This document shows, piece after piece, positions 5,007 to 51,485 of a DNA stretch of 64,000 bases; the first letter of the stretch is position 1; the number at the start of each line of letters is the position of its first letter. The notes under the pieces were generated by a model. The model was not told where the DNA came from and searched no databases. It saw only the letters and a list, made by a program, of their open reading frames with translations. Source of the stretch: Nanobdellota archaeon (GTDB taxonomy: Archaea > Nanobdellota > Nanobdellia > Woesearchaeales > JACQSR01). The stretch spans positions 23,880 through 87,879 of the forward strand of contig JBHPEA010000001.1 in the NCBI GenBank assembly GCA_042577505.1, in the 5' to 3' direction. The position numbers were made by a program, and so were the translations under genes.

Positions 5007-7043
5007 TCAACCGCAGACATTAGGCCTGTATATTGGTGCTATTCCCTTATTGATTTCATAATTTCCATCTTCAAGACTCATCATATGAAATTCTCCTGGA
5101 GGGTGTTCTTGGGGGGACCAAGTATAAAATACCCAACCATCGAAACCAAAATCACATGAATCAGTTATCCATTGACTAGCACGACTTCTCGCTTCATCTA
5201 TTGTATCACAAGTGACAAAAAAATACCCAAATTCCTGCATAAAAAGTGGTTTATCTAGTCTTCCAGTGTATCCATAATCTCTAATAACTGTTTCAAAGTC
5301 ACCTTCTTGACTGTCTGCAAAATCCTGATACATTGATAGGCTTAAAAAATCTAAATTACTATCGTAAAGGGTGGAAAGTGGCGGAATTCCAATTGTATTT
5401 GGATCAGGGAATTCATTATAATAAAAACCTAGTGTAACAAAAGCATTTTCATCAGTTTCTCTTATTACTCCTGCAATTTCATCAATAAGATATCTAAGAT
5501 TGTCTTCCATCATTCGTTCTTTTTCACCCTCAATAGACATGTCATATGTACCTGCAGCTGTAGGAACTGGTCCAGAAAGAGTAAATGGTTTTTCATTCTC
5601 ATGGAATGCTATTTCATTTTCTAAGCTGTATGCAAAGATTGCATCTAGGGGTGCATTTATCATTTTAAGATTATTTATAAAATCTCTAGTCATATCTTTT
5701 CTAGCTCGTATACATTCATCTAATAAAAAATTTGCATTATAATGGTCAATATATTCTGGATTAGAGTTCCAGTATTCTTCATAATCCCAATATTCAAAAG
5801 GTAAATAATCTCGGAACACCAGTATTGCTCCGATATCATTTTGTTTACACAATCGTAAGAAATCAGCTACATTTTCCATATATTGGGGGCCCATCCCTGG
5901 TTCACTAGTGTGAATAGAAGGGTGACCGTTTAAAAAAACTCTAATTGTGTTATAACCAAAGAATTTCATTTTTTGTAGAACTGATGACATATGATCTGAA
6001 TCATAATAGCCAACATCGAAAACAGCATGTCCCCAGTTTGGATCTCTATCCCCCCAAGGAGGTACTAACCAACCAAATTGAGGATAGTGTGAACCCCTAG
6101 GATAAAATATTTCTTGGTTGATTTGATCGTAGAAATATCCGTCATAATCTGGTGTTTGTTTGATAATAATGCCGTCTGGTCTTGATGTTGTTGCACCTAT
6201 TGTGACTTGTCCAATTGGTTCATTTCCAGATACATCTTCATCACAATCAAGAGCAGGAATAACTTTGAATGTTAGTTCATTTCGATTTATGTAATCAAAT
6301 TCTTGAGAAGTTCTTACCCAATAATCATCAGAATCTGGGTCATAAATATTTGAAAGACTACATTTCATAAGTTGTGAAGTACCAGTAATATCTTCTACAT
6401 AAACCTGCACTCTTGGTTGTGGAACATTTTCTGAGCTCCAGAATATTGTAGTGCTACAATACTCTTCACTAGGTTTTATTACACATGAAGAGGGATAAGC
6501 CCAAATATTAGCACTACCTTGTTGTTCTCCCCAAACAGTAATTGAATGAATAGCAGGTCCATGTTGAACACAATCAGGTGATGCATGAATAGAGAAAGTC
6601 AAATCTCCTGTACCTATCCAAGGGATTGAAATGCTTGGAATTACAGGGGAAGTTCTATGATTCATACCTGAGTCACTACAATTTACTATCACTCCTTCAG
6701 GTAATTGCTCATAGCTTACTTTTATTACAACATTTGGTTGTCGTAAAATTTTACTTGACACCCAACTGATAGTTGTTGTACAAGTATCACTACCAGGAGT
6801 AATGGTGCAGGGATTTGGTGTAGCCCACACAAAAGCTAACAAATTTGTATCAATCATACCATCACAATTATTGTCTATTCCATCATTTTCATCTTCAACA
6901 GCACCTGGATTGACATCTGGATTCCCTTCATCACAATCTTCTGGCGGAACAAATCCATCACCATCTCGGTCAGAAACGCAGCTTGATATTAAAATTGCAA
7001 TAATTAGCAAGATAAATGTTGAAAAATGCACCCTTTTTTTCAT
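5007..7043 (-). CDS. Secreted glycoside hydrolase-like protein (TIM-barrel, GH5-like) with N-terminal MopE-like Cys/Asp-rich metal-binding module
   Basis: Start chosen at internal MKKRVHFSTFILLIIAILISSC (signal peptide plus Cys) rather than the ORF-track start at 7106; motif DCDEGNPDVNPGAVEDENDGIDNNCDG; C-terminal NTIRVF…LENEIAF GH-like region; TATA-like aaaattatatatac about 30 nt upstream. Confidence 0.45.
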   Translation of the reverse strand: MKKRVHFSTFILLIIAILISSCVSDRDGDGFVPPEDCDEGNPDVNPGAVEDENDGIDNNCDGMIDTNLLAFVWATPNPCTITPGSDTCTTTISWVSSKILRQPNVVIKVSYEQLPEGVIVNCSDSGMNHRTSPVIPSISIPWIGTGDLTFSIHASPDCVQHGPAIHSITVWGEQQGSANIWAYPSSCVIKPSEEYCSTTIFWSSENVPQPRVQVYVEDITGTSQLMKCSLSNIYDPDSDDYWVRTSQEFDYINRNELTFKVIPALDCDEDVSGNEPIGQVTIGATTSRPDGIIIKQTPDYDGYFYDQINQEIFYPRGSHYPQFGWLVPPWGDRDPNWGHAVFDVGYYDSDHMSSVLQKMKFFGYNTIRVFLNGHPSIHTSEPGMGPQYMENVADFLRLCKQNDIGAILVFRDYLPFEYWDYEEYWNSNPEYIDHYNANFLLDECIRARKDMTRDFINNLKMINAPLDAIFAYSLENEIAFHENEKPFTLSGPVPTAAGTYDMSIEGEKERMMEDNLRYLIDEIAGVIRETDENAFVTLGFYYNEFPDPNTIGIPPLSTLYDSNLDFLSLSMYQDFADSQEGDFETVIRDYGYTGRLDKPLFMQEFGYFFVTCDTIDEARSRASQWITDSCDFGFDGWVFYTWSPQEHPPGEFHMMSLEDGNYEINKGIAPIYRPNVCG

Positions 7044-7113
7044 GTTGTGAATTTTCCAATAGAAGTATATATAATTTTCCTTTAAACGACGAAAAAATGT
7101 ATACAATTTAGTT

Positions 7114-7956
7114 TTAATTTAGATCTGCACAAAGATCTTTAAGGTAAGATTCGTTGTAACATCGTTCTCTTAATCCACAACTCTTACACTTAGAAGAAGA
7201 TTTCAATATTGGTGGTAAATCTTTACTCTTTTTCAGATCATTTACTTTCAAAATTAAATCTTTAATCTCATCCCTTAAAAAAACATTAAATGCAATCTTC
7301 CTTCTATCATTAATATCAAGATATGTAATGTACCCTTCTTCAACTGGATGACCGAATTTCTCCTCCATTAATAAACCATAAGTTCCAATCTGTATTTTAT
7401 GCCCTGGCCAAACACCACTCAATGGAGCACTTCCAGTTTTCAACTCAACAGGGATTTTCTTATCGTGATAAACTTCAATTTGATCAATAATCCCACGAAC
7501 ACCCAATGTCTTTGAACTAACACTTAACTCAGAAAGAATTTTTGGAGTTAATTTCTCCCAAAGTTCATCCCCAAATATCTTCTCTTTCTTAATAAAATTG
7601 TAAATATTCAAGGCCCTTTGTCTACTCTCAAACATTATATAATGTAAATTCTGAGTAAAAACCTGATCATTAGTAAGATTTACACTGAGAATCCTATTTT
7701 CATTATTACCAACAACCTCTCTTAGTATTTTCAAATGAACTTTCTTATAAATAGTTTGTATATCTGAAAAAAAACCAGTTGGTTTAAGGGATTTTACAAC
7801 ATTTTCCTCAATTTTATTTATCCCATCATAACACGCATGTCGAACAGTCCCCAATACAAGCGCTTCTTTCGGAGGCTCCTCTAATTTCAATACATATTGT
7901 AAATACAACTTACGTGGACAATATAAATACCCAGAAAGTTGTGAAACCGAAATCAT
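7114..7956 (-). CDS. Cas4-family (DUF83) PD-(D/E)xK exonuclease, stand-alone
   Basis: N-terminal YCPRKLYL Cys; RecB motifs IIDQIE…ELK and QIGTYGLL (QhxxY); C-terminal CKSCGLRERC three-Cys cluster for Fe-S. Confidence 0.6.
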   Translation of the reverse strand: MISVSQLSGYLYCPRKLYLQYVLKLEEPPKEALVLGTVRHACYDGINKIEENVVKSLKPTGFFSDIQTIYKKVHLKILREVVGNNENRILSVNLTNDQVFTQNLHYIMFESRQRALNIYNFIKKEKIFGDELWEKLTPKILSELSVSSKTLGVRGIIDQIEVYHDKKIPVELKTGSAPLSGVWPGHKIQIGTYGLLMEEKFGHPVEEGYITYLDINDRRKIAFNVFLRDEIKDLILKVNDLKKSKDLPPILKSSSKCKSCGLRERCYNESYLKDLCADLN

Positions 7957-26598: not shown

Positions 26599-27543
26599 AT
26601 GGTAGAATCAATTTGGATAGAGAAATACAGACCTAAGGAATTCTCTGATATCGTTGGACAAAATCATTTAGTAGAACGTATCAAAGCATTCGTTGACCAA
26701 AAAAACATGCCTCATGTTCTATTTGCAGGCCCAGCAGGTACAGGAAAAACATCCACCGCATTAGTCGTTGCAAAAGCACTATTCGGAGACGGATGGAAAC
26801 AAAATTTCTTAGAACTTAACGCATCAGACGAAAGAGGAATTGATGTTATTAGAATCAAAGTAAAGGACTTTGCAAGAACAAGAGCAATAGGAGACGTTCC
26901 TTTCAAAATAATCTACCTTGACGAATGCGACCAACTAACGAGAGATGCCCAACAAGCATTGAGAAGAACAATGGAGAACTTCACTCAAACTTGTAGATTC
27001 ATTCTAAGCTGTAATTATTCATCAAAAATTTTAGATCCAATCCAATCAAGATGTGCAATTTTCAGATTCAAACCAGTCGAAAAGGAACACATCCTAAAAA
27101 TCATTGAAAAAATCGAAAAAAACGAAGAATTGAAAATTGATAATAATGCAAAAGAAGCATTATTTGATGCTTCTGAAGGAGATATTAGGCGCTTAGAAAA
27201 TTTACTTCAAAGTTGTGCATCTATAAGTAAAACAATTACAGAAGACACAGTTTTCTCGGTCGCGTCGGTTGCAAAACCAAAAGAAATCAGAGAAATGCTC
27301 AAATTAGCAATAGAAGGAAAATTCCAAGACGCAAGAAAACTACTCTTAGACACAATGCTTAATTATGGTCTGTCGGGATTAGATATAATCAGACTTATCC
27401 ATAGAGAAATATTAAACTTAGAAATTGAAGATAAAAAGAAACTCCAATTAATTGAAAAAACAGGGGAAGTTGAATTCAGACTAACAGAAGGATCTGATGA
27501 ATATATTCAACTCGAATCCCTTCTAGCTTCTTTTGGTATTTAA
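26599..27543 (+). CDS. rfcS: Replication factor C small subunit
   Basis: WIEKYRPKEFSDIVGQ; GPAGTGKTS Walker A; DECD Walker B; SRC motif (QSRCAIF). Confidence 0.9.
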   Translation: MVESIWIEKYRPKEFSDIVGQNHLVERIKAFVDQKNMPHVLFAGPAGTGKTSTALVVAKALFGDGWKQNFLELNASDERGIDVIRIKVKDFARTRAIGDVPFKIIYLDECDQLTRDAQQALRRTMENFTQTCRFILSCNYSSKILDPIQSRCAIFRFKPVEKEHILKIIEKIEKNEELKIDNNAKEALFDASEGDIRRLENLLQSCASISKTITEDTVFSVASVAKPKEIREMLKLAIEGKFQDARKLLLDTMLNYGLSGLDIIRLIHREILNLEIEDKKKLQLIEKTGEVEFRLTEGSDEYIQLESLLASFGI

Positions 27544-28478
27544 TCACCAGTATGTTTTACAAGTAAGTCAGCATCTATAAATTCATTGTAGTCATACCCA
27601 AGAGTTATCTCAAGTACTTTCTCATAATCAGTTCTATCAGTTAATTGCTGTGTACACCTAACAGTCCTACTCCCACTGTGCAGAGTTATATAACCAGATG
27701 TATCATCACCATCTCTTAAACCTGAACATGCTAATCCAGTTATTCCACTATTAACACTTACATGGACTTTATTTTCATTAGACCTCAAAGAATCATCACA
27801 GTCTACACCTAACTTAAATATCTCTCCACTTCCAGTCTCAGAAACTGTAAATATAAAAGCTACTTTATCTGCACCACTAGCTTGTTCTCTAAAAGCAGTC
27901 ACGGCAACTGGTGCTCCTGAATTATAAACTGTTTTATCTTCGCTTACAACACAAACTGATGTATCAGATTGATCTAACAGATCTTCTTTAATACATATTA
28001 ATGCATTCGCAATAGTTTCATATTGATAACAAACATCTGCTCTTATTGTAAATTGTGTATTTCCACTCAATTCACCACCATGGTTTAAATCAGAAAACAG
28101 AGCATATGTTTCAGTACCTTCTATAATCCCACCATCAGGATCTTGATAGGTAGGTTCAAGATCATCTTCAGGATTTCCAATTAAATCAGCTGCAGTTTTA
28201 CCAAAATCAGCTGGATTGATACCAGAAATCTTAACCCTTACATCTTCTTTTGCAACAAAGGTTTCACCTAAATTATTCAAATTTACTTCCACATCAAAAG
28301 GAAAATCTCCACCATCAAAAACTTCATCAGGAGGGGCTTGCTCTACAAAAGTAGACAATAAACCTGTACTTCCACCTATAAATGGCGTTGTAGGTCCACC
28401 TCCATCTCCGTTATCAGTAGAACAACTAGTAAATAAAAACAGTGAAATAGCCAAAAATGTGATTATCTTCCTTATCAT
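27540..28478 (-). CDS. Secreted lipoprotein-like protein, paralog 1 of a three-member family
   Basis: Signal peptide plus Cys (FLAISLFLFTSCSTDNGDGGGP); shares VCYQYETIANALICI, GAPVAVTAF and a C-terminal LGYDY block with the next two genes. Confidence 0.6.
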   Translation of the reverse strand: MIRKIITFLAISLFLFTSCSTDNGDGGGPTTPFIGGSTGLLSTFVEQAPPDEVFDGGDFPFDVEVNLNNLGETFVAKEDVRVKISGINPADFGKTAADLIGNPEDDLEPTYQDPDGGIIEGTETYALFSDLNHGGELSGNTQFTIRADVCYQYETIANALICIKEDLLDQSDTSVCVVSEDKTVYNSGAPVAVTAFREQASGADKVAFIFTVSETGSGEIFKLGVDCDDSLRSNENKVHVSVNSGITGLACSGLRDGDDTSGYITLHSGSRTVRCTQQLTDRTDYEKVLEITLGYDYNEFIDADLLVKHTGD

Positions 28479-28494
28479 GGTAAAACCTCCTTTT

Positions 28495-29463
28495 TTAAGT
28501 TTCTATTGCCTCGAGTATTTTAATATTTCTAAAATCTGATGTTTTATAACCATATTCTAGCTTAACTGTTAATGGTGTGATATAGGCCTCATCTGTTCCA
28601 GCAGAGGCATGTGAAAATGTACATATTATATTTCCTTGCCCATTGTACAACTCTATAGGATCTCCAAGAGGTGGTCTGCAACTATCAACTGTACGACCAC
28701 CAACTTGTACATCTTCAACATAAACCTTGTTAATCTCTCTCCAATCATAACCTTCATTAGGATTATCAGATACTAAAGCTCGATCAATAACAACACCACT
28801 TCCTAAATTTTGAATATCAATTTTAAACGATGTTTGAGCACTTGTAACTGTTTCTTCAACATTCGTAACGCCAACTGGCCCCCCTTGTGGAGCAACACTA
28901 TAACTCTTCCTAAAATTAGACAAACTACATACTTTATCTCTAACCTCAACACTTCTTGGTTGAGTATCAATACATATTTCCTCTGAAGCAGTTGATCTAT
29001 ATTTGTAAGTTAATGAAAATATTAATCTTGGATCATAAACTGCAGTACCATCAGGTAAATCACCGATGCTTATTATCAAAGACTCAATTGTACGACCACC
29101 TTGAAGATTGTAAGCGCTTTTCCCCTCTAATTCTTCAGGATCCAAAGCTTTTCTGATATCTCCACCATCAAAAGTTGCTTGCATTATTGAAGACTCGTAT
29201 CCACCAACCCAAATAAATGCTTCTAAATCACCAAGCTCTTCAAATTGAGGAAAAGCACCATAATTTTCAATTTGGACTGGTATTCTTATATCGTCATCAT
29301 TCTCATAAACTTGACTTGGGAATCCATCAAGAAAAGTCACTTCTAACGCTCTAGAACCAGTACGGTATTCAATAACAGAGGGCTCATCCCCTCCACCATC
29401 ACAACCTACTAAAACACTCAATACTACTAATACTATACAAATACACACTCTTTTTTGGTTCAT
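28495..29463 (-). CDS. Secreted lipoprotein-like protein, paralog 2
   Basis: Signal peptide plus Cys (VLVVLSVLVGCDGGGDEP); LTYKYRSTASEEICIDT, GGPVGVTNVEE, KLEYGYKT conserved with paralogs. Confidence 0.6.
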   Translation of the reverse strand: MNQKRVCICIVLVVLSVLVGCDGGGDEPSVIEYRTGSRALEVTFLDGFPSQVYENDDDIRIPVQIENYGAFPQFEELGDLEAFIWVGGYESSIMQATFDGGDIRKALDPEELEGKSAYNLQGGRTIESLIISIGDLPDGTAVYDPRLIFSLTYKYRSTASEEICIDTQPRSVEVRDKVCSLSNFRKSYSVAPQGGPVGVTNVEETVTSAQTSFKIDIQNLGSGVVIDRALVSDNPNEGYDWREINKVYVEDVQVGGRTVDSCRPPLGDPIELYNGQGNIICTFSHASAGTDEAYITPLTVKLEYGYKTSDFRNIKILEAIET

Positions 29464-29499
29464 TTATATACCCTTCCTATTTACCTCTTATAAATTTTT

Positions 29500-30471
29500 C
29501 TATCTTCCGAGCTTTTTTATTGTAATATCATGATTTATTGTAGTTCTATACGAATAATCTAACCTAATATTCAAAGGCACCGTATAGGAACCCCCTTCAA
29601 TATTAAATCCTTCTTCTAAAGTACAAATTGCAAATTTTTCTTTAGATTCCATATCTACTAAGAATGTCTTTTCATCACTCTCAATATCACAATCCAACTC
29701 CTTCCCATCAGGAAGGGATGCAGTGACTAAAACTTTGTTTAAATCATCCTCATTATATTTCCCATAACAAACATCATTTGCTTTTTCTGGAGCAAAAACA
29801 TCACCACTTCCAAAATTATCAATGTGTATAATAAACTGTGGTTGAACTCTTCTTTCATCTGTAGTTGGAAGCATCTCAACTTCAACTCTCTTAACACCAA
29901 CAGGCCCACCCTGACCACCAGATAACGAAACGTCAGAAGCTTCGCATGCCCTAGTACCACCTTCCCTTAAACCAAGAGGATCAGTATCGATACATACATT
30001 TGGCGATGCAATTGTATGATAAGGATAACAAACAGAAACAGATAAACTACTATCTTGCTCTTCAAGTGAAAGTATCTTGGGAGTTTCAATTTTTAATCCA
30101 AATGAATCATGTTCACCTTGAATATTCAAAGTGTTCCTCCCAAACAATTGAAAAGAAATATGTGACTCATCTAATTTATTGAAAGAACTAGGTTCTCCAA
30201 ATCTAGGTTCTTCCCTTACAATCATATGGGTATCATCTAGATTAATTAAGATATATCCATCCTCAACATCGTAAGCCCCTTTATTCCATACATCAAGGTT
30301 CATGAAAAAATATCTTCCAACATAAGATTCTTCTGGAGGTTTATTTTCTTGAAATGAAATTTCCATCCCAGTCGTACCTTTGTATACATCCTCACTTGTT
30401 ACAGACGGACCATTATCTTCACATCCAACAACAAAAATAAAAATCACCAGTAAGAAAAAAATTCTTTTCAT
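29500..30471 (-). CDS. Secreted lipoprotein-like protein, paralog 3
   Basis: Signal peptide plus Cys (FLLVIFIFVVGCEDNG); VCYPYHTIASPNVCIDTD, GGPVGVKRVEVE, RLDYSYRT conserved. Confidence 0.6.
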   Translation of the reverse strand: MKRIFFLLVIFIFVVGCEDNGPSVTSEDVYKGTTGMEISFQENKPPEESYVGRYFFMNLDVWNKGAYDVEDGYILINLDDTHMIVREEPRFGEPSSFNKLDESHISFQLFGRNTLNIQGEHDSFGLKIETPKILSLEEQDSSLSVSVCYPYHTIASPNVCIDTDPLGLREGGTRACEASDVSLSGGQGGPVGVKRVEVEMLPTTDERRVQPQFIIHIDNFGSGDVFAPEKANDVCYGKYNEDDLNKVLVTASLPDGKELDCDIESDEKTFLVDMESKEKFAICTLEEGFNIEGGSYTVPLNIRLDYSYRTTINHDITIKKLGR

Positions 30472-33029
30472 GTTAATGCAGCCTCCCCTTCAGGTGCTAA
30501 AGGTTTTGGTCTAAAAGTAAATCTTTTTTGAACAGTTTTTCCATCCATATTCCTAAAATTAGAATTATCGTTAGGTATAGCAACTATTGTAACCTGATCC
30601 TTTGCAAAAGCTCTATCGGCAGGAAAAATAATCTCACATTCATTTTCACATTCTATAAATTCTTGATTGGTAGAATAATCCCCTTCATACCAATATCTTA
30701 CTTTAACTGAATCTTCAGGATCTTTATCTTCGACTTTGAATTTTATTATCACTTCTTGTTCCTCAACTGCTTCGCCAACTTCTATCTCAAGTTCTGGTGG
30801 AGAATTTCCCACTAAAACTGTATCAGATCCCTCTTGCATACTATATTCTGTGGCACCATCTTCTACTAAAGAAGCAGCGGCTTCCCTCACAAGTCCAAAA
30901 TCCAATGTACCTTTAGCTTCACAAGTAACCCTTGTTCCACGAGGTTGCTCTGGTATATTCAAATACCAAAAATCTTTTTTATCATCCAAAATAGGATTCT
31001 CAATATTTAATTCACCATCATCAATCTTATATCCCATTTCAATTTGTGAGATTCTGAATTGACTGTGACTTGCCGAACATTTCAATCTATCGCTACTTAT
31101 TGGTTTGTCAGGAGTTAGATCCACATAGAATCCATCTGGTCTCTTAATTGATGCATGACCTGTAGCTTCTAAAGTATAATCGTAATAAACATTAGTCCTA
31201 ATAAATAATCCCTGAGACGTTTTACCCTTCAAAATGTTATCAGGATCTCCACCTGACACCCTTAACAGACAAGTTATGTCTTTATACGTTTTAAGATCTT
31301 TTAAGTTTCTCAATTCTTGATCAGTTAGTTTATATGGAGAATATTCTACTTCTAAATCCTCATCCAATAGTGCCACCTCGTCAGCCTCGACAGTTGTTTC
31401 TTCAAATTTATCACAATTGTCATTAAATGTCAATCCATCTGGTAAGAAAACAATCACCTTCTCAATCTCATTTGCTTGCCCTTTCCATTTATTTGTTAAT
31501 CTTAAAGTCCAATCTATCAAAGTGTCTTCATCTGTTTTCATTCCAACCAAAGGTGTTTTGGTACTCATACCAATAGAAATAGATCCATTGGACGAATGAG
31601 ATCTAGGTTTCTTTTCAGTGATACCAATATTCCTTAGATTAGAATCATCAGTAGCCTTTTTTACTTCGTCATTAAGGAACCAGAGTTTGAGAAATCCCCA
31701 TGTCTTAAAATTAAATCGAGCATTGAAAGTTATCTTCCTTACACCCTGATCAAGTTTTCCACCTTCAAACTTACAATTAACTAACTTCTGATCTTCCTTT
31801 TGAACAAGAACATCAATATCATTTATCTCAGCTAACTCGCCATCTTCTTCATAATAATCTGTTGTAATTTCTCCTTCAACAACATCACGTGGCTCTTTAT
31901 TTTGTGCTGAACAATACAAATTAATCTTAATCGCTTCTTCATCATCTGGTAAATAATCATCAGGATTGGAAGGTATATTTATTGCTGACAATGTTCCAGA
32001 CATCTCAACATCTTGATTCGGTGCAAACTCAGAACTCGAGGGCTGTAGGCCCCCTAAGGAAACCCCTAAAGGAGCTTCCTCCACCTCAGTAACAATCTCA
32101 TTATAATATCCACCTGACCCCTGTACTAAAATACCAGTAACCATTTGGTCAAAACTAATTTTCATATTAGCTACAGAAGCTTTCCATGCTTCCCACCCAT
32201 CATCAAAACTATAATCTGGTCTATATGCATCAAATACTTGTGGAAGACCAGATGCCTGAGCAGAATTAAAAATAAAAGGTATAGCTAATGCAACAATTAC
32301 CACAACATAAAGAGCTCCAATCCTTCTTTTCCATTTATCATCAAAGGGCCCTTTTTCTAGGAAGAAAATCCAACCAGCAGGCATAGCGAACGTTAATATT
32401 AACGATGGCATGTGTCCATTTAATTGAAATGTTTTTTGTAGCAAACCAAGTCCATAAGGTAGTAAAAATGCAAAAGCCCAGAGAAAAAACAATTCTTCCA
32501 TTACCCCTTTTTTTTGGGAACCGTCAAAATATCTACCTACCAACAAATAAGTAAATAGGCACACAAGAAAATACATTAAAGCTCTGAACAATGGAGCAAT
32601 AAGCGAAAAACCCATGCTCCAATCTAAGGCATATGCAGATCCAGCGATAAAAACAAAAAAGAGTGTAGGAGCATTACCTTCGGCTTTTGAACCTTTATCA
32701 AGTTGTTTCTTCTGCAGATCCAATTGGCTTTTTCTGTATGCAGCTTCGTCAGCCATGGCTTTTTCTTGAAGCCCTAACTGAGCTTTCATCATTTCATTAG
32801 GATCTGGAGGTTGTTGTGCGCCTTCTCCTCCCTCAGCTCCTTGGGGGGCCTGCCCATCCTCAGAAGGTTTTTCTCCACCACCTTGTTGACCACCAGTTTC
32901 TCTCTCTAAACCTCTTTGAGCTTCTTCCCTTAGCTTTGCTTCATCAGGTGGTGTGTTTTGATTACTCATTCTTGCAGCCCTTCTTCTCCTTTGACTCTTA
33001 ATATCCATAGCTGAATCATCATCTGTCAT
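30468..33029 (-). CDS. Large polytopic membrane protein: disordered acidic/Gly-Gln-rich cytoplasmic N-tail, about 5 TM helices, about 550-aa extracellular domain
   Basis: 853 aa; hydrophobic helices between about aa 115-260; 4-nt start/stop overlap with paralog 3; N-tail region visibly GC-richer. Confidence 0.55.
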   Translation of the reverse strand: MTDDDSAMDIKSQRRRRAARMSNQNTPPDEAKLREEAQRGLERETGGQQGGGEKPSEDGQAPQGAEGGEGAQQPPDPNEMMKAQLGLQEKAMADEAAYRKSQLDLQKKQLDKGSKAEGNAPTLFFVFIAGSAYALDWSMGFSLIAPLFRALMYFLVCLFTYLLVGRYFDGSQKKGVMEELFFLWAFAFLLPYGLGLLQKTFQLNGHMPSLILTFAMPAGWIFFLEKGPFDDKWKRRIGALYVVVIVALAIPFIFNSAQASGLPQVFDAYRPDYSFDDGWEAWKASVANMKISFDQMVTGILVQGSGGYYNEIVTEVEEAPLGVSLGGLQPSSSEFAPNQDVEMSGTLSAINIPSNPDDYLPDDEEAIKINLYCSAQNKEPRDVVEGEITTDYYEEDGELAEINDIDVLVQKEDQKLVNCKFEGGKLDQGVRKITFNARFNFKTWGFLKLWFLNDEVKKATDDSNLRNIGITEKKPRSHSSNGSISIGMSTKTPLVGMKTDEDTLIDWTLRLTNKWKGQANEIEKVIVFLPDGLTFNDNCDKFEETTVEADEVALLDEDLEVEYSPYKLTDQELRNLKDLKTYKDITCLLRVSGGDPDNILKGKTSQGLFIRTNVYYDYTLEATGHASIKRPDGFYVDLTPDKPISSDRLKCSASHSQFRISQIEMGYKIDDGELNIENPILDDKKDFWYLNIPEQPRGTRVTCEAKGTLDFGLVREAAASLVEDGATEYSMQEGSDTVLVGNSPPELEIEVGEAVEEQEVIIKFKVEDKDPEDSVKVRYWYEGDYSTNQEFIECENECEIIFPADRAFAKDQVTIVAIPNDNSNFRNMDGKTVQKRFTFRPKPLAPEGEAALT

Positions 33030-33058
33030 ATTCCATATAAACCAGAATTCAAAGCCCC

Positions 33059-34342
33059 TTAATCGTCATCTTGTTCTTCGAGGACTACCTTCAGATCAAC
33101 AATATTCAATCGGGTTTTCGGGCGAATCTCTACATAATTATTACCCTCTTCAATCCAAGTGGTAATTCTTCTTTCATAATCAGGCTCATCCTGGTCAACA
33201 TTTGTTAAGTGGTCATTAATATTAAGATCGAGTCTCTTCACTTCATCGTCATCAACAAATCTTAATCTTATGTAAGCTTCTCTTGTTCTGTTGTCAACCT
33301 CTTCAAAAAGAGTTTCATTGACTTCAAAATAATAGATAGGATAAACTTCTTCAGCCAATTCAGTCTTAACCATAACTGAATCGATTAAGTAAGTTCCTTC
33401 TGTTGTAGTAAATTCAAGTGTATTTTCACCACGGTCTATTAAACCAGGACTAAATTCAATTTTGTTTAAAGCGCCACAATCTGGAATTCCACTAAACAAT
33501 TGCCTTCGATTCAACACAACCTGAAGAACTCCTACATCAGATGGTTGACAATCAGGATTGAACCTAAAAGAAGCACTCTCTATATAATCAATTTCCTCTT
33601 GACTGACAAAGAACACTGCTTTACTTGATTCCCTTGCAACATCAGCAATTTCAGCTGTTATTAATAATCCATCAAATTGATATTGATTAGTTGTCCAGAA
33701 TTTCCATCCAACACCAGAAACTGAAAACTCCAACACATTATCTCTTTCTAAATCCTCACCAGCTAAAGTAACTGGTGGAGGAGTTGAAACTTCTAATTCC
33801 CCTTCAAAAATAACATCTCCATTTAACTTTATCATTAAAATTCCCTGAGCTTTTCCAACAGAAAAGGAAAGTAAAACATTCTCAGTTAATTGAGTATCGT
33901 CGATAGTAAACCTAACTTCTTTGGATCTATAATCAAAAATCCCATTCCTAACTTGATAAGGATTTGTTTTCTTTAGAACCTTAGCTCCTGTTGTTCTAAA
34001 CAATGTAAAAGAAGGGATATCATGCTCTACTTCGTCTAAATCACGATCTTCAATAGTACCAACACTCTCCTCAAGTACAGTGATATTTTCATCAGACCTA
34101 CTTGAAGAAGGCTTACCATTATCACCATTTTCTAGTATAGTATCCCTATCTTCTTCAGGGATTGCAAGTATATATAGAAGAATGAGCCCAAACATTATCG
34201 CTACTAGTATAGAAGCGTTTATTGCACCTTGTCCTCTTTTTATCAAAATCTCACCTATACCTAAATCTATTTTAATTTCATCAATGAATAATTTTATATA
34301 TAAATGTTTTCTTTTTATCCTTAGTATATGATACAAACCCAC
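33059..34342 (-). CDS. Type-II signal-anchored extracellular protein, first gene of the surface operon
   Basis: Basic N-tail then TM (AINASILVAIMFGLILLYILAIP); start uncertain because the annotated ATG overlaps the pelota start by 15 nt; alternative ATG at 34195. Confidence 0.45.
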   Translation of the reverse strand: MGLYHILRIKRKHLYIKLFIDEIKIDLGIGEILIKRGQGAINASILVAIMFGLILLYILAIPEEDRDTILENGDNGKPSSSRSDENITVLEESVGTIEDRDLDEVEHDIPSFTLFRTTGAKVLKKTNPYQVRNGIFDYRSKEVRFTIDDTQLTENVLLSFSVGKAQGILMIKLNGDVIFEGELEVSTPPPVTLAGEDLERDNVLEFSVSGVGWKFWTTNQYQFDGLLITAEIADVARESSKAVFFVSQEEIDYIESASFRFNPDCQPSDVGVLQVVLNRRQLFSGIPDCGALNKIEFSPGLIDRGENTLEFTTTEGTYLIDSVMVKTELAEEVYPIYYFEVNETLFEEVDNRTREAYIRLRFVDDDEVKRLDLNINDHLTNVDQDEPDYERRITTWIEEGNNYVEIRPKTRLNIVDLKVVLEEQDDD

Positions 34343-35380
34343 ACTAATCTAAAAAAAGGCGAAATAAAGTTAAAACCCGAAAATAAGGATGATTTATGGA
34401 TTTTAAGTCAGATTATAGACTCAGAAGACCTAATTAAATCAAGAACATTAAGAAAGATTAAAGTTGGTGGCAAAGATGAAAGATCTGGTTCAGTAGCAAG
34501 AAAACCTATGTTTCTTTCATTAAAAGTCGAAAAAGTTGAATTAGCAGAAAACCTAAGAATCTTAGGCACAGTGACGGAAGGAAATGAAGATGTTCCAAAA
34601 GGTTCGCATCATTCTTTCAACATCGAGGAAAATGACATATTAACCATCATCAAACCAAAATGGCTAAAATTTCAATTAGATAAAGTTAAAGAAGCAACAA
34701 AAACAAAAGTAAGCCCAATATTAATTTGCGTTTTGGATAGGGATGAATGTTACATTGCATTAATGAAGAGAAGAGGTTTTGAAGTAATTGCCCATTTAGA
34801 AGGAAATGTTCAAAAGAAAGATGTTGAAGTTAAATCTGTAAATTTCTACGAGGAGATCATTAAGAAATTAGAAGAAATTGTTGGAAGACAAAGGATAGAT
34901 AATATAATCCTAGCATCACCTGCATTCTGGAAAGAAGATTTAATGAAAAAAATATCCAAAGATGAAATTAAGAAAAAAATCCACTTAGCAACTTGTTCTG
35001 CCGTCGGGAAATCCGCAATAAATGAAGTCTTGAAAAGAAAAGAAATTCAAAATGTAATGAAGGAAGACAGAACAACCCAAGAAATAAATTTGGTAGAACA
35101 TTTATTCGAAGAAATTTCTAAAGATGAAAAAGCAGCTTATGGAACGAAAGAAGTAAATGCTGCATCAGATTCAGGAGCCATTGAAATTCTCTTAGTTACA
35201 GACGGATTAATTAAGAAATCCCGTGAAGATAATAATTATCAAGAGTTAGAAAAGTTGATGAAAAACGTCGATTCTATTAAAGGTGAAGTCCATTTAATTT
35301 CTTCTGACAATGACGGAGGAAAACAATTAGATGGTTTAGGAGGAATTGGAGCAATTCTAAGGTTTAAGATGAATTATTAG
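34328..35380 (+). CDS. pelA: Pelota/Dom34 mRNA surveillance factor
   Basis: N-terminus IKLKPENKDDLWILSQII; eRF1-like domains; 350 aa. Confidence 0.8.
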   Translation: MIQTHTNLKKGEIKLKPENKDDLWILSQIIDSEDLIKSRTLRKIKVGGKDERSGSVARKPMFLSLKVEKVELAENLRILGTVTEGNEDVPKGSHHSFNIEENDILTIIKPKWLKFQLDKVKEATKTKVSPILICVLDRDECYIALMKRRGFEVIAHLEGNVQKKDVEVKSVNFYEEIIKKLEEIVGRQRIDNIILASPAFWKEDLMKKISKDEIKKKIHLATCSAVGKSAINEVLKRKEIQNVMKEDRTTQEINLVEHLFEEISKDEKAAYGTKEVNAASDSGAIEILLVTDGLIKKSREDNNYQELEKLMKNVDSIKGEVHLISSDNDGGKQLDGLGGIGAILRFKMNY

Positions 35381-40406: not shown

Positions 40407-41660
40407 ATGAAAGAAGAGAAAATAGATATGTTAGAATTTGTTCCTAAAGAGGTAATTAGCGGAAAAAACCATAATCACTATAGGTTGAACACAGACAAGG
40501 ATAACTTGTATATCTATTTGAATTACCAGGTTGATCAACATAATTCAAAGAGAGAACATTCTTGGACAATCCCGAGGTATATTTCGAGAACAAGTAATAT
40601 GTTTGAAGTTTTGGGTTTATTAAAAGCGGAGATGGGAAAGAAATGTGATGGGAAAATTGTTTTTTGTAACCATGAATTCAAATTAGTTAATAAGATCCTT
40701 GATTGGTTTGAAAGGGAATTAGAGTTTGGAAAAGAAAAGTGGAAGTGGTACATTAAAGTTAATATTAATGAACCATTGAATTTTTTTTACCGAAAGGAAA
40801 TTGAAGAAAAGGTTGTAAATCATTGGGCAAAAAATACTAATCTACCAATCGATCAATCATATCCAAAGAAAGTGAGTTATATTAGTAACACAAAAAATAC
40901 CCAAATTAAGTTTTTTGATTTTGGATCTCTGATAATTGAACGAAAAGTGAATCTGTTTAGTCAGATAGTAAAGAATTTTGTAGAGGCAATGTCAAAAAAT
41001 ATTCTTAACTTTGAAGACAATGAAATAAGATCTTTCATGAGGGGAATAATCGCAGGGGAATCTAATATAGAACTGCATAAAGCTTCAAAACATTATAGGG
41101 TGTATATCACTGCTAAATATTATGAAGAAAGAAAAATGTATCAAGATTGTTTAAAGAGACTAGGGATTGACTCAACGAATTATGAAAACTTTGAAGGATT
41201 AATAATCTCTAAAAAACAAAACAACCTCCAACTCTTAAAACAAAAATTAGTCTGCTTAAGCCCTAAAAAATATAACAAGTTTCTAAGAATGGTGGGTATG
41301 TATCAAGATATCCAAGATTCGAGATATTTTACTGGTATAAAGATACCACATAATATGATTCCGGATGAAATAGTAAATGAAGCTATTATACTTCATCTTG
41401 AGAATCCTATTTTACCTTGCTGGAAAATTGCTGAATTATTAGATATTAGTCCAATTAAAGTTAACCGAATTTTAAAAGAGCATAATTTAGGAAAAAGATT
41501 ACCCAAGACATCGAAAGATAAAATTAGTGAAATCATCAAAATACATAATGAAAATCCTAGATTGCACGCTTATCAAATTGCAAAAATGTGCGGTGTTCAA
41601 GAAGGTGTAGTATGGAGAATTAGAAGGAAACATAGACTAAAAAAGATCCAAAAGCTTTAA
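40407..41660 (+). CDS. LAGLIDADG-like homing-endonuclease-like protein with two C-terminal HTH modules, inserted in the r-protein/RNAP cluster
   Basis: Two LAGLIDADG-like motifs (VLGLLKAEMG, MRGIIAGESN) about 140 aa apart; C-terminal HTH-like repeats (CWKIAELLDISPIKVNRIL and AYQIAKMCGVQEGVVWRIR). Confidence 0.4.
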   Translation: MKEEKIDMLEFVPKEVISGKNHNHYRLNTDKDNLYIYLNYQVDQHNSKREHSWTIPRYISRTSNMFEVLGLLKAEMGKKCDGKIVFCNHEFKLVNKILDWFERELEFGKEKWKWYIKVNINEPLNFFYRKEIEEKVVNHWAKNTNLPIDQSYPKKVSYISNTKNTQIKFFDFGSLIIERKVNLFSQIVKNFVEAMSKNILNFEDNEIRSFMRGIIAGESNIELHKASKHYRVYITAKYYEERKMYQDCLKRLGIDSTNYENFEGLIISKKQNNLQLLKQKLVCLSPKKYNKFLRMVGMYQDIQDSRYFTGIKIPHNMIPDEIVNEAIILHLENPILPCWKIAELLDISPIKVNRILKEHNLGKRLPKTSKDKISEIIKIHNENPRLHAYQIAKMCGVQEGVVWRIRRKHRLKKIQKL

Positions 41661-41686: not shown

Positions 41687-41884
41687 ATGATAATACCAAT
41701 TCGTTGTTGGAGCTGCGGAAAACCCATTGCACAGTTATGGGAAGAGTACAAAGAGAGAGTTGAGAAAGGCGAGCAAAAAAAGAAAGTCATGGACGAACTT
41801 GGCTTAGAAAGATATTGCTGCAGATCCATGTTCTTAGGAAATGTCGAACTAATAGAAACAGCAGCAGCTTTTAAGAAGAATTAA
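41687..41884 (+). CDS. rpoN: DNA-directed RNA polymerase subunit N (Rpb10 homolog)
   Basis: MIIPIRCWSCGK…YCCRSM zinc motif; 65 aa from the internal ATG; the track ORF starts at 41663. Confidence 0.8.
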   Translation: MIIPIRCWSCGKPIAQLWEEYKERVEKGEQKKKVMDELGLERYCCRSMFLGNVELIETAAAFKKN

Positions 41885-43259
41885 TTTCATTTCCTTCTTT
41901 CTTTAACATATGCCAATGCATAGGTTGACCTGTCAATACTTTTAGAATACCTAAATTCACATAGTAAGTTACAACAAGCCCATAACTAAACGATGCCATA
42001 AACACTTTATCCACTCTTGCCATATCTTTATCCATAATAACTGCAACTAGACTAGCTATCAACAAACCACTTGTTAGCAAAATATTCCTACTCATCTCCC
42101 CAAAGAACCTTGGCAGATCCATTGGGCCAGGTGGGTGTGTAATGAATGCTAATGTACCAAATAATAACAAGGTAAACAAAAGGAAAGTAAACATATATCC
42201 TGAACAAAATGAGAAAATAGCAAATTTAGATCTAAAACCCAATCTCCTACTCATCAATGCTCTCCAATGCATTTTAACAGAAGAAAAAACACCATAAGCC
42301 CATCTCATCTGTTGTTTATACAAATCCTTTGATGTATGTGGAACTTCACACCCACATTCCAAATCTTCTAAATAAATTAACTTTTTATTTTTAAGCAATA
42401 ATCTAATTGAACATTCAATATCTTCAGTCATACTTCCAGATAACCATCCACCAACTTCTATCAAATCCTTCTTTCTAATAGCCTCAGCAGAACCACAAAG
42501 CAAAGATACTTTTCCAAAATTCTTTACAAAAGGCATGATAAAATAGTGGAACACTTTGCTCATCGTGGCACCGAGCATTGTTATCAAATTTGTATTGGGA
42601 TTTATTATCTTCCACCTTGATTGAACGACTGATAGGTCTGGAATATGTTGATAAGGAGCAATTAACCTTCTCAAAAAATCTCTCTCAGGTAAAAAATCAG
42701 AATCAAATAAAACTAATATTTCTCCATTTGAGAATTTTAATAAATTATTAAGATTCCCTGGCTTATATCCAACATTTCTTTCCCTCTTGAAAACCTTGAT
42801 TTGTTCATGTGCATTTGCAAATTCAATTATCTTTTTCGAAATCTCTGGATTATTGCTATCATCACCTATCAATATTTCAAACTTATCTTTAGGATAATCA
42901 AATTCTAAACACCTTTTAGCACAATTTAATGCAGCAAGCTCATTTAAAGTTGGAATCTGAATAGAAACATAAGGTGCTTTTTCAGTGTCAAAAGAATAAT
43001 GATGAGTTTTTTTCTTAGATGTTAACTTATGAATCATTACAACATAAAATAACACAGATATTACGACAGTAACACCTAAGAAAGCATAGAATGTATTATT
43101 GAAAACCAAGTGTGTAAAATCTAGAAAATCTCTTCCAGCAGCATTGTACCACTCGAAAAATTCCCTTCCAGACACAACCGACCAATGTATTGCGTTTCTC
43201 AGAAACTCCGGTATCATTCTCCAAAATACTGTATTTCCCTCCTTATTATTCCAAGACAA
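41871..43259 (-). CDS. Processive family-2 glycosyltransferase (cellulose/chitin synthase-like) with TM helices
   Basis: DDSNN (DxD-like), DSDF, and QQMRWAYG (QxxRW) motifs; N- and C-terminal TM segments. Confidence 0.75.
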   Translation of the reverse strand: MSWNNKEGNTVFWRMIPEFLRNAIHWSVVSGREFFEWYNAAGRDFLDFTHLVFNNTFYAFLGVTVVISVLFYVVMIHKLTSKKKTHHYSFDTEKAPYVSIQIPTLNELAALNCAKRCLEFDYPKDKFEILIGDDSNNPEISKKIIEFANAHEQIKVFKRERNVGYKPGNLNNLLKFSNGEILVLFDSDFLPERDFLRRLIAPYQHIPDLSVVQSRWKIINPNTNLITMLGATMSKVFHYFIMPFVKNFGKVSLLCGSAEAIRKKDLIEVGGWLSGSMTEDIECSIRLLLKNKKLIYLEDLECGCEVPHTSKDLYKQQMRWAYGVFSSVKMHWRALMSRRLGFRSKFAIFSFCSGYMFTFLLFTLLLFGTLAFITHPPGPMDLPRFFGEMSRNILLTSGLLIASLVAVIMDKDMARVDKVFMASFSYGLVVTYYVNLGILKVLTGQPMHWHMLKKEGNEINSS

Positions 43260-44268: not shown

Positions 44269-44862
44269 ATGAAATACATCATATTAATTTTATTATCTTT
44301 AATCTTATCAAGTTGTTGCATTGATCAAGAGATTTGCAGAGATCCTGACTACAAAGATTGTTGCCCCAAAGATTGGGTATGTACTGATGGAATTGAATGC
44401 AAGGGATGCGGAGATGAAGTGTGCAACCTTGATGAAAACGTATCGACTTGTTCTAAAGATTGTGTAGAACCACAAATGTTTACTATTGCGGTTCATGATG
44501 AATTATTCAACGTAATGATTACTGATCCAGAAGAGATTGAATTGGCAAAAGAAGTATATTTCGGAATTGATCCCAGTAAAGGAAGTTGGAAAATGATTAT
44601 CGGTGATCTTGCTTTAGGGAATGATGGTTACAATGCAGATTGGAGTTGGCACTTAATCCCAAATACTGTAAGAGTGATAGATTCTAGTATCGAAGTTTGT
44701 GATGGAACTCCAAGCCATGTTGAAAACAATTTAAAATATTGGATGAACGTAGTTGGAGATTTCTGTCCTTGGGCAAGTAAGGTAGTCGGAATTTGCGGAG
44801 ATAGTATTTGTGACTATGAAGAAAAAGATTTCTGCTTTGGAGATTGTGGAGAACCCTCCTAG
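44269..44862 (+). CDS. Secreted Cys-rich protein sharing an N-terminal Cys module with the next gene
   Basis: Signal plus SSCCIDQEICRDPDYKDCCPKDWVCTDGIECKGCGDEVC…CSKDCVEP, a module paralogous to the N-terminus of 44904-46934. Confidence 0.55.
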   Translation: MKYIILILLSLILSSCCIDQEICRDPDYKDCCPKDWVCTDGIECKGCGDEVCNLDENVSTCSKDCVEPQMFTIAVHDELFNVMITDPEEIELAKEVYFGIDPSKGSWKMIIGDLALGNDGYNADWSWHLIPNTVRVIDSSIEVCDGTPSHVENNLKYWMNVVGDFCPWASKVVGICGDSICDYEEKDFCFGDCGEPS

Positions 44863-49972: not shown

Positions 49973-51454
49973 CTAATATTTCCTAAACCTATGTATTATC
50001 TTCAGTGTTACAAAAAGAATAAAAGCTAAAAGTACATATAATAAAATTGGAATTCCAGAATCAACGACATTCTCAGCTTTAAAAAAACTTGAATTATCCT
50101 CTTCAACTATCTCTTCATCACCAAATGCAAGCTGGTAAAGAAATATTTCATCAATCTCAGTAACTCTTCCATCGGGGGTAAAATAATCTATAGATAAATT
50201 AAAATGATATTCAACATCTTCAGAAGAAGGTAGGGGACTTAATAATTGAGAAAGTAGGTTTCTAGTACGATCAGCTCGTAATTCTTCAATTTCTTTATAA
50301 AAATCGATACCAGGATAATTAGAACTTAAATTTATAGTTATATTCGTAATCGTAGTCTCAATACTAGGATTTTCAATTGAAAAATACAACGTAGCATTAT
50401 GTTCTTCAGAAATCTCTTTTTTATCAATCTCAAATTGATAATCCAAACCAGGAAGAATAGTGAGAATCTCCATCTCATTCTCTTCAATCCTTCTTTCACC
50501 AAATGAATTATAATCAATATATGTTTTTATCGAAGAAACCCCTTCTTCAATTGACTTGATCTTTAAAATAAATTCCTCAGAAGAATTCTTATTTAAATGC
50601 CCCACCCATATATACCCATCTACTTGCTCTTCCAAATTATACGAAGCATGGGTAACTTCTAATGTGTAAGGTAACTCAATTCGAAATTGAGTAATTGTTA
50701 GACTTTCATTTAAAAAATTTGTAAGATTAAATTCCAAATCAGTCTCCATTCCAACCTCAAGTTGATCTCTCTCCAATTTTGAATTCAATATTAAATCCTT
50801 TTGAGTTACTCTAATATCTTGCTCATCAATCCTAGTGATAGTTTCTTCTTCATTATTGTATGTTAACTCAGTTTTTATTGAATAATTACCTGTTTGTTTT
50901 GGGATCAATTTATAAGAACAAATAAGATTTTCATTCTTACGTATAGTGCCTCTAAAAACCAAATTATCGTCCTCAATACTACACCCTTTTGGATTATGTA
51001 TGATAAAAGAGGCAGGAACCCTTTCAATAAAAACAACATCAGTTGCATCATTCTCATCCGAATTTTGAATGTTAACGTTAACTGAAAACTCCTCACCAAC
51101 CATAGCGTTTGTATCACTAACCCTAGAAATTGAAAGTAAAGACACCGCAGCATAAACACCAATCTTTCCTTTATAATATTGACGATCTTGTGTATAATTA
51201 ATGAAATCTTCCTCCATTAAAGCACAGAAATTTTTATTTTCCTTTGCTCTACAACTATCATTCTCAACAATTATGCTTAATCCACCATAATCAATATAGG
51301 CTTTCTGACCATCTATAGAGTAAGACGCTGATAAGTTTTCACCATGTACTTCAATTGATTCTCCATGTACTAGCCAATCATCATGAATTTTCTCACTATA
51401 TGTAGCAGAAACTGGAACAATTAACAGTAAAAAAAATATTAAAGCATATTTCAT
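49973..51454 (-). CDS. Surface protein with N-terminal signal peptide and C-terminal TM anchor
   Basis: Start at internal MKYALIFFLLLIVPVSA (track start 51472); C-terminal GIPILLYVLLAFILFVTLKIIHRFRKY anchor; Asn-rich possible glycosylation sequons. Confidence 0.5.
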   Translation of the reverse strand: MKYALIFFLLLIVPVSATYSEKIHDDWLVHGESIEVHGENLSASYSIDGQKAYIDYGGLSIIVENDSCRAKENKNFCALMEEDFINYTQDRQYYKGKIGVYAAVSLLSISRVSDTNAMVGEEFSVNVNIQNSDENDATDVVFIERVPASFIIHNPKGCSIEDDNLVFRGTIRKNENLICSYKLIPKQTGNYSIKTELTYNNEEETITRIDEQDIRVTQKDLILNSKLERDQLEVGMETDLEFNLTNFLNESLTITQFRIELPYTLEVTHASYNLEEQVDGYIWVGHLNKNSSEEFILKIKSIEEGVSSIKTYIDYNSFGERRIEENEMEILTILPGLDYQFEIDKKEISEEHNATLYFSIENPSIETTITNITINLSSNYPGIDFYKEIEELRADRTRNLLSQLLSPLPSSEDVEYHFNLSIDYFTPDGRVTEIDEIFLYQLAFGDEEIVEEDNSSFFKAENVVDSGIPILLYVLLAFILFVTLKIIHRFRKY

Positions 51455-51485
51455 AACCCAAATGTCATTCACCGATATAAATACC

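Follow-up and report, generated by a model that had tools for sequence, protein, structure and literature searches.

A conserved five-gene operon of Woesearchaeota-type archaea that may encode a membrane-anchored surface complex engaging cell-wall polysaccharide

In the 64,000-nucleotide stretch of contig JBHPEA010000001.1 analysed here (positions 23,880 to 87,879; called the window below), five co-directional open reading frames (ORFs) lie on the minus strand at positions 27540-34342 and appear to encode the subunits of a membrane-anchored surface complex. The source record is that of a 'Nanoarchaeota archaeon', a tiny and probably host-dependent DPANN archaeon; a first-pass annotation, made from the letters of this DNA alone, had considered a host-dependent archaeon with a small genome as a possibility. 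All five ORFs listed in that annotation were re-found at the same positions; they carry the locus tags ACFLZX_00280-00300, and the operon is present in a single copy within the window. In the order of transcription, gene (i) (33059..34246, minus strand, as are the other four) encodes 395 amino acids (aa) from a likely TTG start at 34246, and is followed by gene (ii) (30468-33029, 853 aa) and by three genes for lipoprotein paralogs, here called PAR1 (gene iii, 29500..30471, 323 aa), PAR2 (gene iv, 28495..29463, 322 aa) and PAR3 (gene v, 27540..28478, 312 aa). The intergenic gaps in the same order are 29, -4, 36 and 16 nucleotides (nt), the negative value being a 4-nt overlap between the stop of gene (ii) and the start of PAR1; the first three are as originally reported, and the gap between PAR2 and PAR3, previously given as 17 nt, measures 16. 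The longest ORF of gene (i) extends to 34342, and its product reaches the 427 aa first proposed only when translation begins at the first in-frame GTG. A GGTGAG sequence precedes the TTG at 34246, and 395 aa is also the length of the NCBI protein P0081 from the same contig.

A TATA-like box, TTTATATA (34297..34304, minus strand), can be read about 50 nt 5' of the likely TTG start, within an 81-nt divergent spacer that gene (i) shares with the gene for Pelota, and may act as the promoter of the operon. Purine-rich Shine-Dalgarno-like sequences lie 5' of genes iii, iv and v, no hairpin-type terminators were found within the five-gene block, and the GC skew across the region is consistent with one long minus-strand unit; scans for sigma-70 promoters and terminators carry no information for an archaeon. 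The two flanking genes, which lie outside the system, were identified by Pfam matches on orthologous neighbours: Pelota on the divergent side (34328..35380, plus strand; Pelota_N/eRF1) and the small subunit of replication factor C (RFC) on the convergent side (26599..27543, plus strand; AAA/Rep_fac_C), the latter overlapping the PAR3 stop by 4 nt.

PAR1, PAR2 and PAR3 are predicted to be lipoproteins. Each starts with a signal peptide that leads to a cysteine in a canonical lipobox (VVGC with Cys17 in PAR1, LVGC with Cys21 in PAR2 and FTSC with Cys19 in PAR3), as the first-pass annotation had noticed, and this cysteine is invariant in 73 of 73 aligned family members, with G, A or S at position -1 in 70 of them and L, I or V at position -3 in 53. 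The presequences are mostly 16-22 aa long, and a lipobox-like motif was found in 85 of the 95 PAR ORFs at the related loci described below. The three proteins are true paralogs, as had been proposed (BLASTP E = 1e-15, 4e-11 and 2e-4), with pairwise identities of about 25%; the block VCY(Q/P)Y, which was thought to be common to all of them, is present in PAR1 and PAR3, but PAR2 reads LTYKY. The family comprises 79 clusters of about 310-320 aa, which come exclusively from Woesearchaeota/Nanoarchaeota records, and none of the 79 contains a Pfam domain. The AlphaFold2 model of PAR1 (pLDDT 89.7, pTM 0.85) consists of two beta-sandwich domains and is all-beta, with the seven strands of an Ig-like beta-sandwich. 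The gathering scores of the Pfam families CARDB and DUF11 were not reached by any PAR, although E values of 0.002-0.1 were obtained for 7 (CARDB) and 3 (DUF11) of 73 members; the PARs of the window had no match at all. The few sub-threshold matches agree with a beta-sandwich fold. Single PAR domains of about 120 residues match bacterial alpha-2-macroglobulin-type lipoproteins and CARDB/DUF11 proteins such as Pyrococcus PF1109 (PDB 3idu) at 5-14% identity, but the PARs differ from the alpha-2-macroglobulin type in having no thioester or bait region and in being 320 rather than about 1500 aa long. ABC substrate-binding proteins, which the first-pass annotation had raised as an example of a mundane identity, were considered and rejected: the model is all-beta, there were no matches to substrate-binding proteins and the operon contains no ABC genes.

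The product of gene (ii) begins with a cytoplasmic tail (aa 1 to ~118, 32676..33029, minus strand as for the parts that follow) which, read from the sequence, is acidic, rich in Gln and Gly and of low complexity. It continues with a membrane domain of five transmembrane (TM) helices (aa ~119-256, 32262..32675), placed by hydropathy and by an alignment of 27 orthologs, a conserved extracellular core (aa ~296-636, 31122..32144), and a Cys-containing distal C-terminal extension of about 215 aa (aa 637-853, 30471..31121). The length of 853 aa, the tail and the five helices are as first annotated, and the extracellular part, which had been put at about 550 aa, measures about 600. An exhaustive representative search with aa 111-853 returned 448 representatives at E <= 1e-3. 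The tails of the orthologs are charged, vary from 10 to about 400 aa and show no sequence conservation; the TM domain is poorly conserved as well, except for D in TM1, LP in TM3 and PxW in TM4, and its K/R-rich inside loops on alternate sides fit an N-in/C-out topology. PDB matches over the TM region (32262-32675) to LMBD1 (E = 6e-5) and, more weakly, to Piezo and G-protein-coupled receptors were set aside as probably due to hydrophobic composition. The core opens with a GDYYTGxV...PLGVYL motif just past TM5. When it was compared with the C-terminal domain of the PARs, hhalign gave E = 1.2e-5 to 2.4e-5 (P 75-81%) over 182 columns, with the motifs SGPV/GGPV and N.W.G/N.GSG and the Y.Y end in register, and with two conserved cysteines of (ii), C539 and C587, aligned with C235 and C283 of the PARs. 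The last 200 aa of the core are probably homologous to the PAR C-terminal domain, the larger of the two PAR domains, and would constitute a fourth copy of this fold. An extension of the type found in the window is common to about 25 representatives of the family; we would guess that it is beta-rich.

The protein encoded by gene (i) has a short K/R-G-Q N-terminus and a single TM helix (aa 10-28), from which a flexible linker leads to three jelly rolls (approximately aa 55-205, 207-297 and 304-391) with a galactose-binding/carbohydrate-binding module (CBM)-like fold. The N-terminal membrane anchor of the earlier annotation is retained. The AlphaFold2 model (pLDDT 87) shows a 19-residue helix, a disordered linker and three jelly rolls; the repeats of about 100 aa are homologous to one another (hhalign self-comparison, E = 1.3e-7), and fold comparison placed them closest to sugar-binding modules. 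The domains resemble those of PNGase F, BcsB, the GH2 N-terminal domain and CBM6/35/36, but gene (i) differs from these sugar-binding proteins in having no attached catalytic domain, in its N-terminal helix anchor and in remaining below Pfam thresholds; family members gave weak Pfam matches to Glyco_hydro_2_N (8e-5) and to a CBM-like family (2e-4). The conserved aromatics, including an FW.TN.Y motif, are suggestive only as a hint of a sugar site. Gene (i) is the best-conserved subunit, with more than 148 clusters and identities of 35-67% versus 20-30% for the PARs, in keeping with a ligand that is universal, for example the backbone of a glycan. There was no detectable relation between gene (i) and the PARs or the (ii) core in hhalign comparisons (E 0.16 and 0.03, respectively). 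At the N-terminus of the family, xxKK(G/A)Q leads into a hydrophobic helix, with K3 and Q6 nearly invariant in the closer relatives; we treat it as a signal anchor whose processing is uncertain. A sub-clade carries long variants of 555-568 aa, in which an insertion of about 170 aa (for example, P0164 aa ~324-494), without a Pfam match, lies within the third jelly roll.

The first-pass annotation had suggested that the synteny be checked in relatives, and the five-gene order was found to be kept across Woesearchaeota. A genome scan with one genome per species, built on 10 closer sequences and two short peptide patterns, on which the locus counts depend, yielded 39 loci, all of Woesearchaeota type. 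Taxonomic labels are those of the records, among which titles reading 'uncultured Methanosarcinales' are probably mislabelled bins. In 20 of the 26 loci with at least 6.5 kb of sequence downstream of gene (i), three or more PAR genes come after it in the same orientation. In 24 of 33 loci the next gene upstream is Pelota, in divergent orientation, and a convergent RFC gene lies downstream in 17 of 20. The order Pelota, (i), (ii), PAR1, PAR2, PAR3, RFC recurs in divergent genomes: two look-ups by protein identity showed it in AR15-like and other genomes, and L001 and L003 have it too. The same order together with the same flanking genes in many divergent genomes places the five-gene arrangement far beyond chance. 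Furthermore, in 74 of 75 cases (25 loci with three PARs each) a PAR found its best match in another locus at its own position in the operon; PAR2 of the window falls into positional group 2, and the ortholog group of PAR3 stands furthest apart. This makes the triplication an old and position-fixed one, and not a recent tandem duplication, with each copy retained as expected for distinct subunits; this fixed set argues that the three are co-required. At one locus (L029:5923-11100) the row comprises five PAR genes, two more than usual. In three loci of the clade with long gene (i) variants (L033, L036 and L037), the PARs are inverted beside RFC, 7-9 kb from gene (i), which means that the operon can be divided. 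All five families share one narrow taxonomic range. The first-pass annotation had recognised no catalytic or known adhesin motifs, and none of the five proteins had a match in Pfam, NCBIfam, PHROGs, PADLOC or the sequences of the PDB; weak PDB matches to Lmo1026/Lin1025 (E 0.03) and to 2cqo were judged to be noise. A role in phage or anti-phage defence, or an origin as a viral element, was rejected: besides the absence of PHROGs and PADLOC matches, no relative of gene (i) was found on IMG/VR viral contigs, and a fold search of the viral database BFVD gave TM-scores of 0.25 at most.

A hint as to function came from the relatives of gene (ii). When the (ii) alignment was run as a profile against the PDB, it matched the lytic murein transglycosylases EmtA and MltC (E = 3e-5), and 7 of the 27 (ii) orthologs from syntenic loci (L024, L025, L026, L030, L032, L035 and L041) have an SLT domain that passes the Pfam threshold. 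With a family-specific SLT profile, the domain was detected in 38 of 181 (ii) members, always past the conserved core, and several of these have the ES...GLMQ catalytic motif. The syntenic (ii) protein of another locus (L007:1429-3768) carries instead a Peptidase_M23 domain with the HxxxD and HxH motifs. The SLT, M23 and NlpC/P60 domains of the family belong to three unrelated families of peptidoglycan hydrolases that occupy the same distal slot of (ii). In the tree of gene (i), the SLT-bearing loci are found in at least three clades, and the notion that the hydrolase-bearing proteins are paralogs of (ii) encoded outside the operon is contradicted at 8 syntenic loci. The earlier idea of an interaction apparatus gains indirect support from these three kinds of domain in (ii) orthologs.

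A second signature was found in the near-total avoidance of N-glycosylation sequons by the PARs. With expectations obtained by shuffling each protein, and with family-wide statistics that ignore shared ancestry, the 79 proteins of the PAR family (20-30% identity) contain 8 N-x-S/T motifs versus 180.5 ± 11.7 expected (ratio 0.04), and the 95 PAR ORFs of the loci contain 17 versus 208 expected (ratio 0.08); PAR1-3 of the window have none. The corresponding ratio is 0.56-0.66 for gene (i), 0.59 for the (ii) core, 0.32 for the C-terminal extensions of (ii) and 0.96 for other ORFs of the loci. Control motifs in the PARs occur near expectation, at ratios of 0.87 (S/T-x-N), 0.96 (N-S/T), 0.80 (N-x-x-S/T) and 0.86 (D-x-S/T), and there is an excess of N-x-A/G (1.59) and Q-x-S/T (1.56), the pattern that mutation away from sequons would leave. 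From this pattern we infer strong selection against N-glycans on the PARs, as proteins that would face the glycosylation machinery; the avoidance supports an extracellular location of the PARs and counts against a classical glycosylated S-layer role for them, and it would fit surfaces that pack tightly or come very near a partner. Such an avoidance is an unusual evolutionary signature in itself, which can be searched for elsewhere. Another gene of the window (49973-51472, minus strand) encodes an acidic DUF11-like protein of 499 aa (isoelectric point 4.5; DUF11/BatD matches sub-threshold) with 12 sequons versus 4.9 expected, and this protein would be the better candidate for a glycosylated component of a wall or S-layer type.

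Taken together, we favour the reading that the operon encodes a lineage-specific, membrane-anchored surface complex that engages an external cell-wall polysaccharide, probably bacterial peptidoglycan, and we would put the probability of this reading at roughly 0.45. The more cautious proposal of the first-pass annotation, an unrecognised membrane-anchored surface assembly, is supported by the conserved synteny, the lipoboxes and the TM topology, and an extracellular location is supported by the lipobox cysteines, the five-TM N-in/C-out topology, the conserved cysteine pairs and the acidic isoelectric points of 4.2-4.6. According to the favoured reading, the five proteins would be subunits of one extracellular complex specific to Woesearchaeota-type DPANN archaea. 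The product of gene (ii), with its variable charged tail, five TM helices and conserved core, would be the base, and PAR1-3, as non-redundant lipid-anchored subunits, might pack around or along the (ii) core to form a glycan-free beta-sandwich stalk or collar. The gene (i) product, tethered by a single helix and a flexible linker, would add three carbohydrate-binding-like jelly rolls, and the far end of (ii) would be an exchangeable working module, which in many lineages is a peptidoglycan hydrolase. Such a complex could bind cell-wall polysaccharide outside the archaeon, and the peptidoglycan of bacteria is its most likely target. In the lineages that bear a hydrolase the complex may also cut the wall, for attachment to bacteria or for feeding on them, and the copy in the window would be a non-lytic variant that binds and does not cut.

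Several observations weigh against this reading. About four fifths of the (ii) family have no recognisable hydrolase, and many members have no C-terminal extension, so that peptidoglycan cleavage cannot be the core function. An SLT domain with its catalytic Glu is absent both from the (ii) protein of the window and from all reading frames of the 64-kb window, and the extension of the window protein has no Pfam or PDB match and no enzyme domain; we considered whether this extension is a degenerate SLT and rejected the idea, as the two were unrelated on comparison. NlpC/P60 was found in one (ii) family member (P0313), whereas synteny is established for the seven orthologs with SLT named above and for the L007 protein with M23. 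The homology between (ii) and the PARs is confined to one domain, as hhalign detected no significant similarity between the PAR N-terminal domain and the N-terminal part of the (ii) core. Finally, the order-wide distribution, the apparently single copy and the housekeeping neighbourhood fit a structural role in the envelope at least as well as an interaction with a host.

The last point leads to the most serious rival, a housekeeping structural element of the envelope, such as an S-layer-like array, a scaffold beneath the S-layer or an S-layer anchor, in which the hydrolases would be incidental. We regard this as doubtful, and as the rival that deserves most weight. A fixed site between Pelota and RFC throughout the order, a single copy within the window, an ancient and fixed set of subunits, the many (ii) orthologs without a distal module and the majority of (ii) orthologs without an enzyme speak for such an element, and gene (i) could bind the surface glycans of the cell itself. 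The operon proteins also share with archaeal S-layers, such as Sulfolobus SlaA/SlaB and Haloferax csg, an acidic, extracellular, membrane-anchored and multi-beta-sandwich nature. However, archaeal S-layer proteins are typically, and often heavily, glycosylated, in contrast to the near absence of sequons in the PARs, and the separate sequon-rich DUF11-like protein looks more wall-like. S-layers consist of one or two proteins (PMC5744192), whereas here there are five subunits with three kinds of anchor, and no sequence match or full-length fold match to S-layer systems was found for the operon proteins. Furthermore, separately annotated and highly expressed S-layer genes are reported from metatranscriptomes of Woesearchaeota (PMC11606122), and it is difficult to dismiss as incidental that murein hydrolases were acquired three times independently.

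A more far-reaching version of the favoured reading takes the complex for an organelle of contact between archaeon and bacterium, with the PARs and the homologous core of (ii) as a glycan-free collar, gene (i) as a triple lectin-like guide onto peptidoglycan, a lineage-specific tip, either a murein hydrolase or a binder, for opening or gripping the wall, and a variable cytoplasmic tail that couples contact to the inside of the cell. We consider this speculative and rather unlikely. If true, it would be the first molecularly defined device for attachment and feeding in Woesearchaeota, and much of this large uncultured group would live on bacteria and not on archaea.

Alternatively, the complex could remodel a polysaccharide or murein-like wall of the archaeon itself, in the manner of the lipoprotein-controlled murein hydrolase complexes of bacteria. 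Bacterial murein hydrolases have lipoprotein regulators, which the lipoprotein partners encoded here recall, and the SLT, M23 and NlpC/P60 modules of (ii) orthologs would be the enzymes. FtsEX-EnvC/NlpD provides a functional analogy with a likewise composed membrane base, lipoprotein partners and an M23/lytic-transglycosylase-type activity outside the membrane, but it shows no homology to the operon proteins, which include no ABC ATPase, and its hydrolase is recruited, whereas here it is fused; the archaeon is not known to have a murein of its own. A processive-type GT2 glycosyltransferase gene (Glyco_trans_2_3; 41871-43259, minus strand) is located 8 kb away and the jelly rolls of gene (i) resemble those of BcsB, both of which would favour this alternative. 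However, the GT2 gene lies outside the conserved neighbourhood, no genes for murein or pseudomurein synthesis were found among the window ORFs scanned, most (ii) orthologs, the window copy included, have no hydrolase, and archaeal peptidoglycan hydrolases are reported mostly from outside the producers of pseudomurein (PMC12352652). We therefore hold remodelling of the archaeon's own wall to be improbable.

It is very improbable that the five genes are neighbours by descent only, that is, unrelated surface proteins kept adjacent by a low rate of rearrangement. The housekeeping flanks are equally conserved in position, and local synteny is thus generally high, and the three loci with inverted PARs several kilobases from gene (i) would be in accord with it. 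In contrast, the 4-nt overlap and the short gaps, the domain that four of the five genes probably share, and the identical narrow taxonomic range of the five families speak for an association, as does the correlation of (ii) length with summed PAR length (rho 0.72, shared ancestry ignored); the lengths of (i) and (ii) are not correlated (rho 0.17). Least probable among the explanations considered is that the genes form an accessory to a type IV filament or secretion machinery, with the gene (i) product a prepilin-like protein cleaved at the K-G-Q N-terminus, as the resemblance of xxKK(G/A)Q and the following helix to class III signal peptides is outweighed by the absence of a match to the Pfam class III signal model at E <= 1, by 8 polar residues between KKAQ and the helix in some orthologs, by a model in which the helix leads into a disordered linker and is not packed on a globular domain as in pilins, by the lack of an ATPase, platform protein or prepilin peptidase gene in the operon and its conserved flanks, and by the uniqueness of the motif within the window, where no second KK(G/A)Q-type N-terminus was found.

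Returning to a complex that engages bacterial cell walls, parts of it may already have been encountered. In earlier reports on Woesearchaeota/Pacearchaeota, a role in binding or degrading the walls of bacteria has been suggested for large murein transglycosylases that are extracellular or bound to the membrane (PMC8204110, PMC9723730), and for Nanoarchaeota peptidoglycan hydrolases are reported to be prominent (PMC12352652). When compared by description, the proteins of fam00969 (PMC8204110) and the GH23 proteins (PMC9723730) come from the same taxa and, like the 38 SLT-bearing members of the (ii) family, are large and extracellular and contain SLT/GH23 domains; the (ii) protein of the window, which has no SLT, is unlike them in this respect. 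They were reported as single proteins, with no mention of a five-TM base, an operon, lipoprotein paralogs or a jelly-roll partner. On this comparison by description, the published SLT-bearing Woesearchaeota proteins appear to be variants of subunit (ii), and the operon would place the large murein transglycosylases of these scattered reports on one defined chassis of several subunits. Our reading of the literature brought up no account of the operon, nor of its lipoprotein paralogs or jelly-roll partner. Taken singly, the folds are widespread ones, Ig-like/CARDB/MG sandwiches and CBM-like jelly rolls, and the novelty lies in the architecture and the association; we rate the combination of a signal-anchored triple jelly roll, a five-TM protein with a PAR-like core and a swappable tip, and three fixed lipoproteins as new in kind, its function being putative. 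Woesearchaeota are among the most widespread uncultured archaea, and to our knowledge neither their hosts nor their means of contact have been described. The operon proteins are concrete targets for deciding whether these archaea attach to bacteria or prey on them.

The window contains several other genes of note. ARAGORN found no tRNA gene at positions 1-64000. A gene at 40407-41660 (plus strand) encodes LAGLIDADG-like and helix-turn-helix (HTH) domains and is possibly a homing-endonuclease-type element, and a Cas4/PD-(D/E)XK nuclease-like gene is located at 7114-7956 (minus strand). Two ORFs are very rich in cysteine, one with 28 Cys in 307 aa and no Pfam match (3971-4894, minus strand) and the other with 17 Cys in 197 aa (44269-44862, plus strand). 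Finally, an acidic protein of 699 aa (5007-7106, minus strand) contains both a MopE-type metal-binding motif and a GH5 cellulase domain, and has few sequons (1 versus 5.3 expected).

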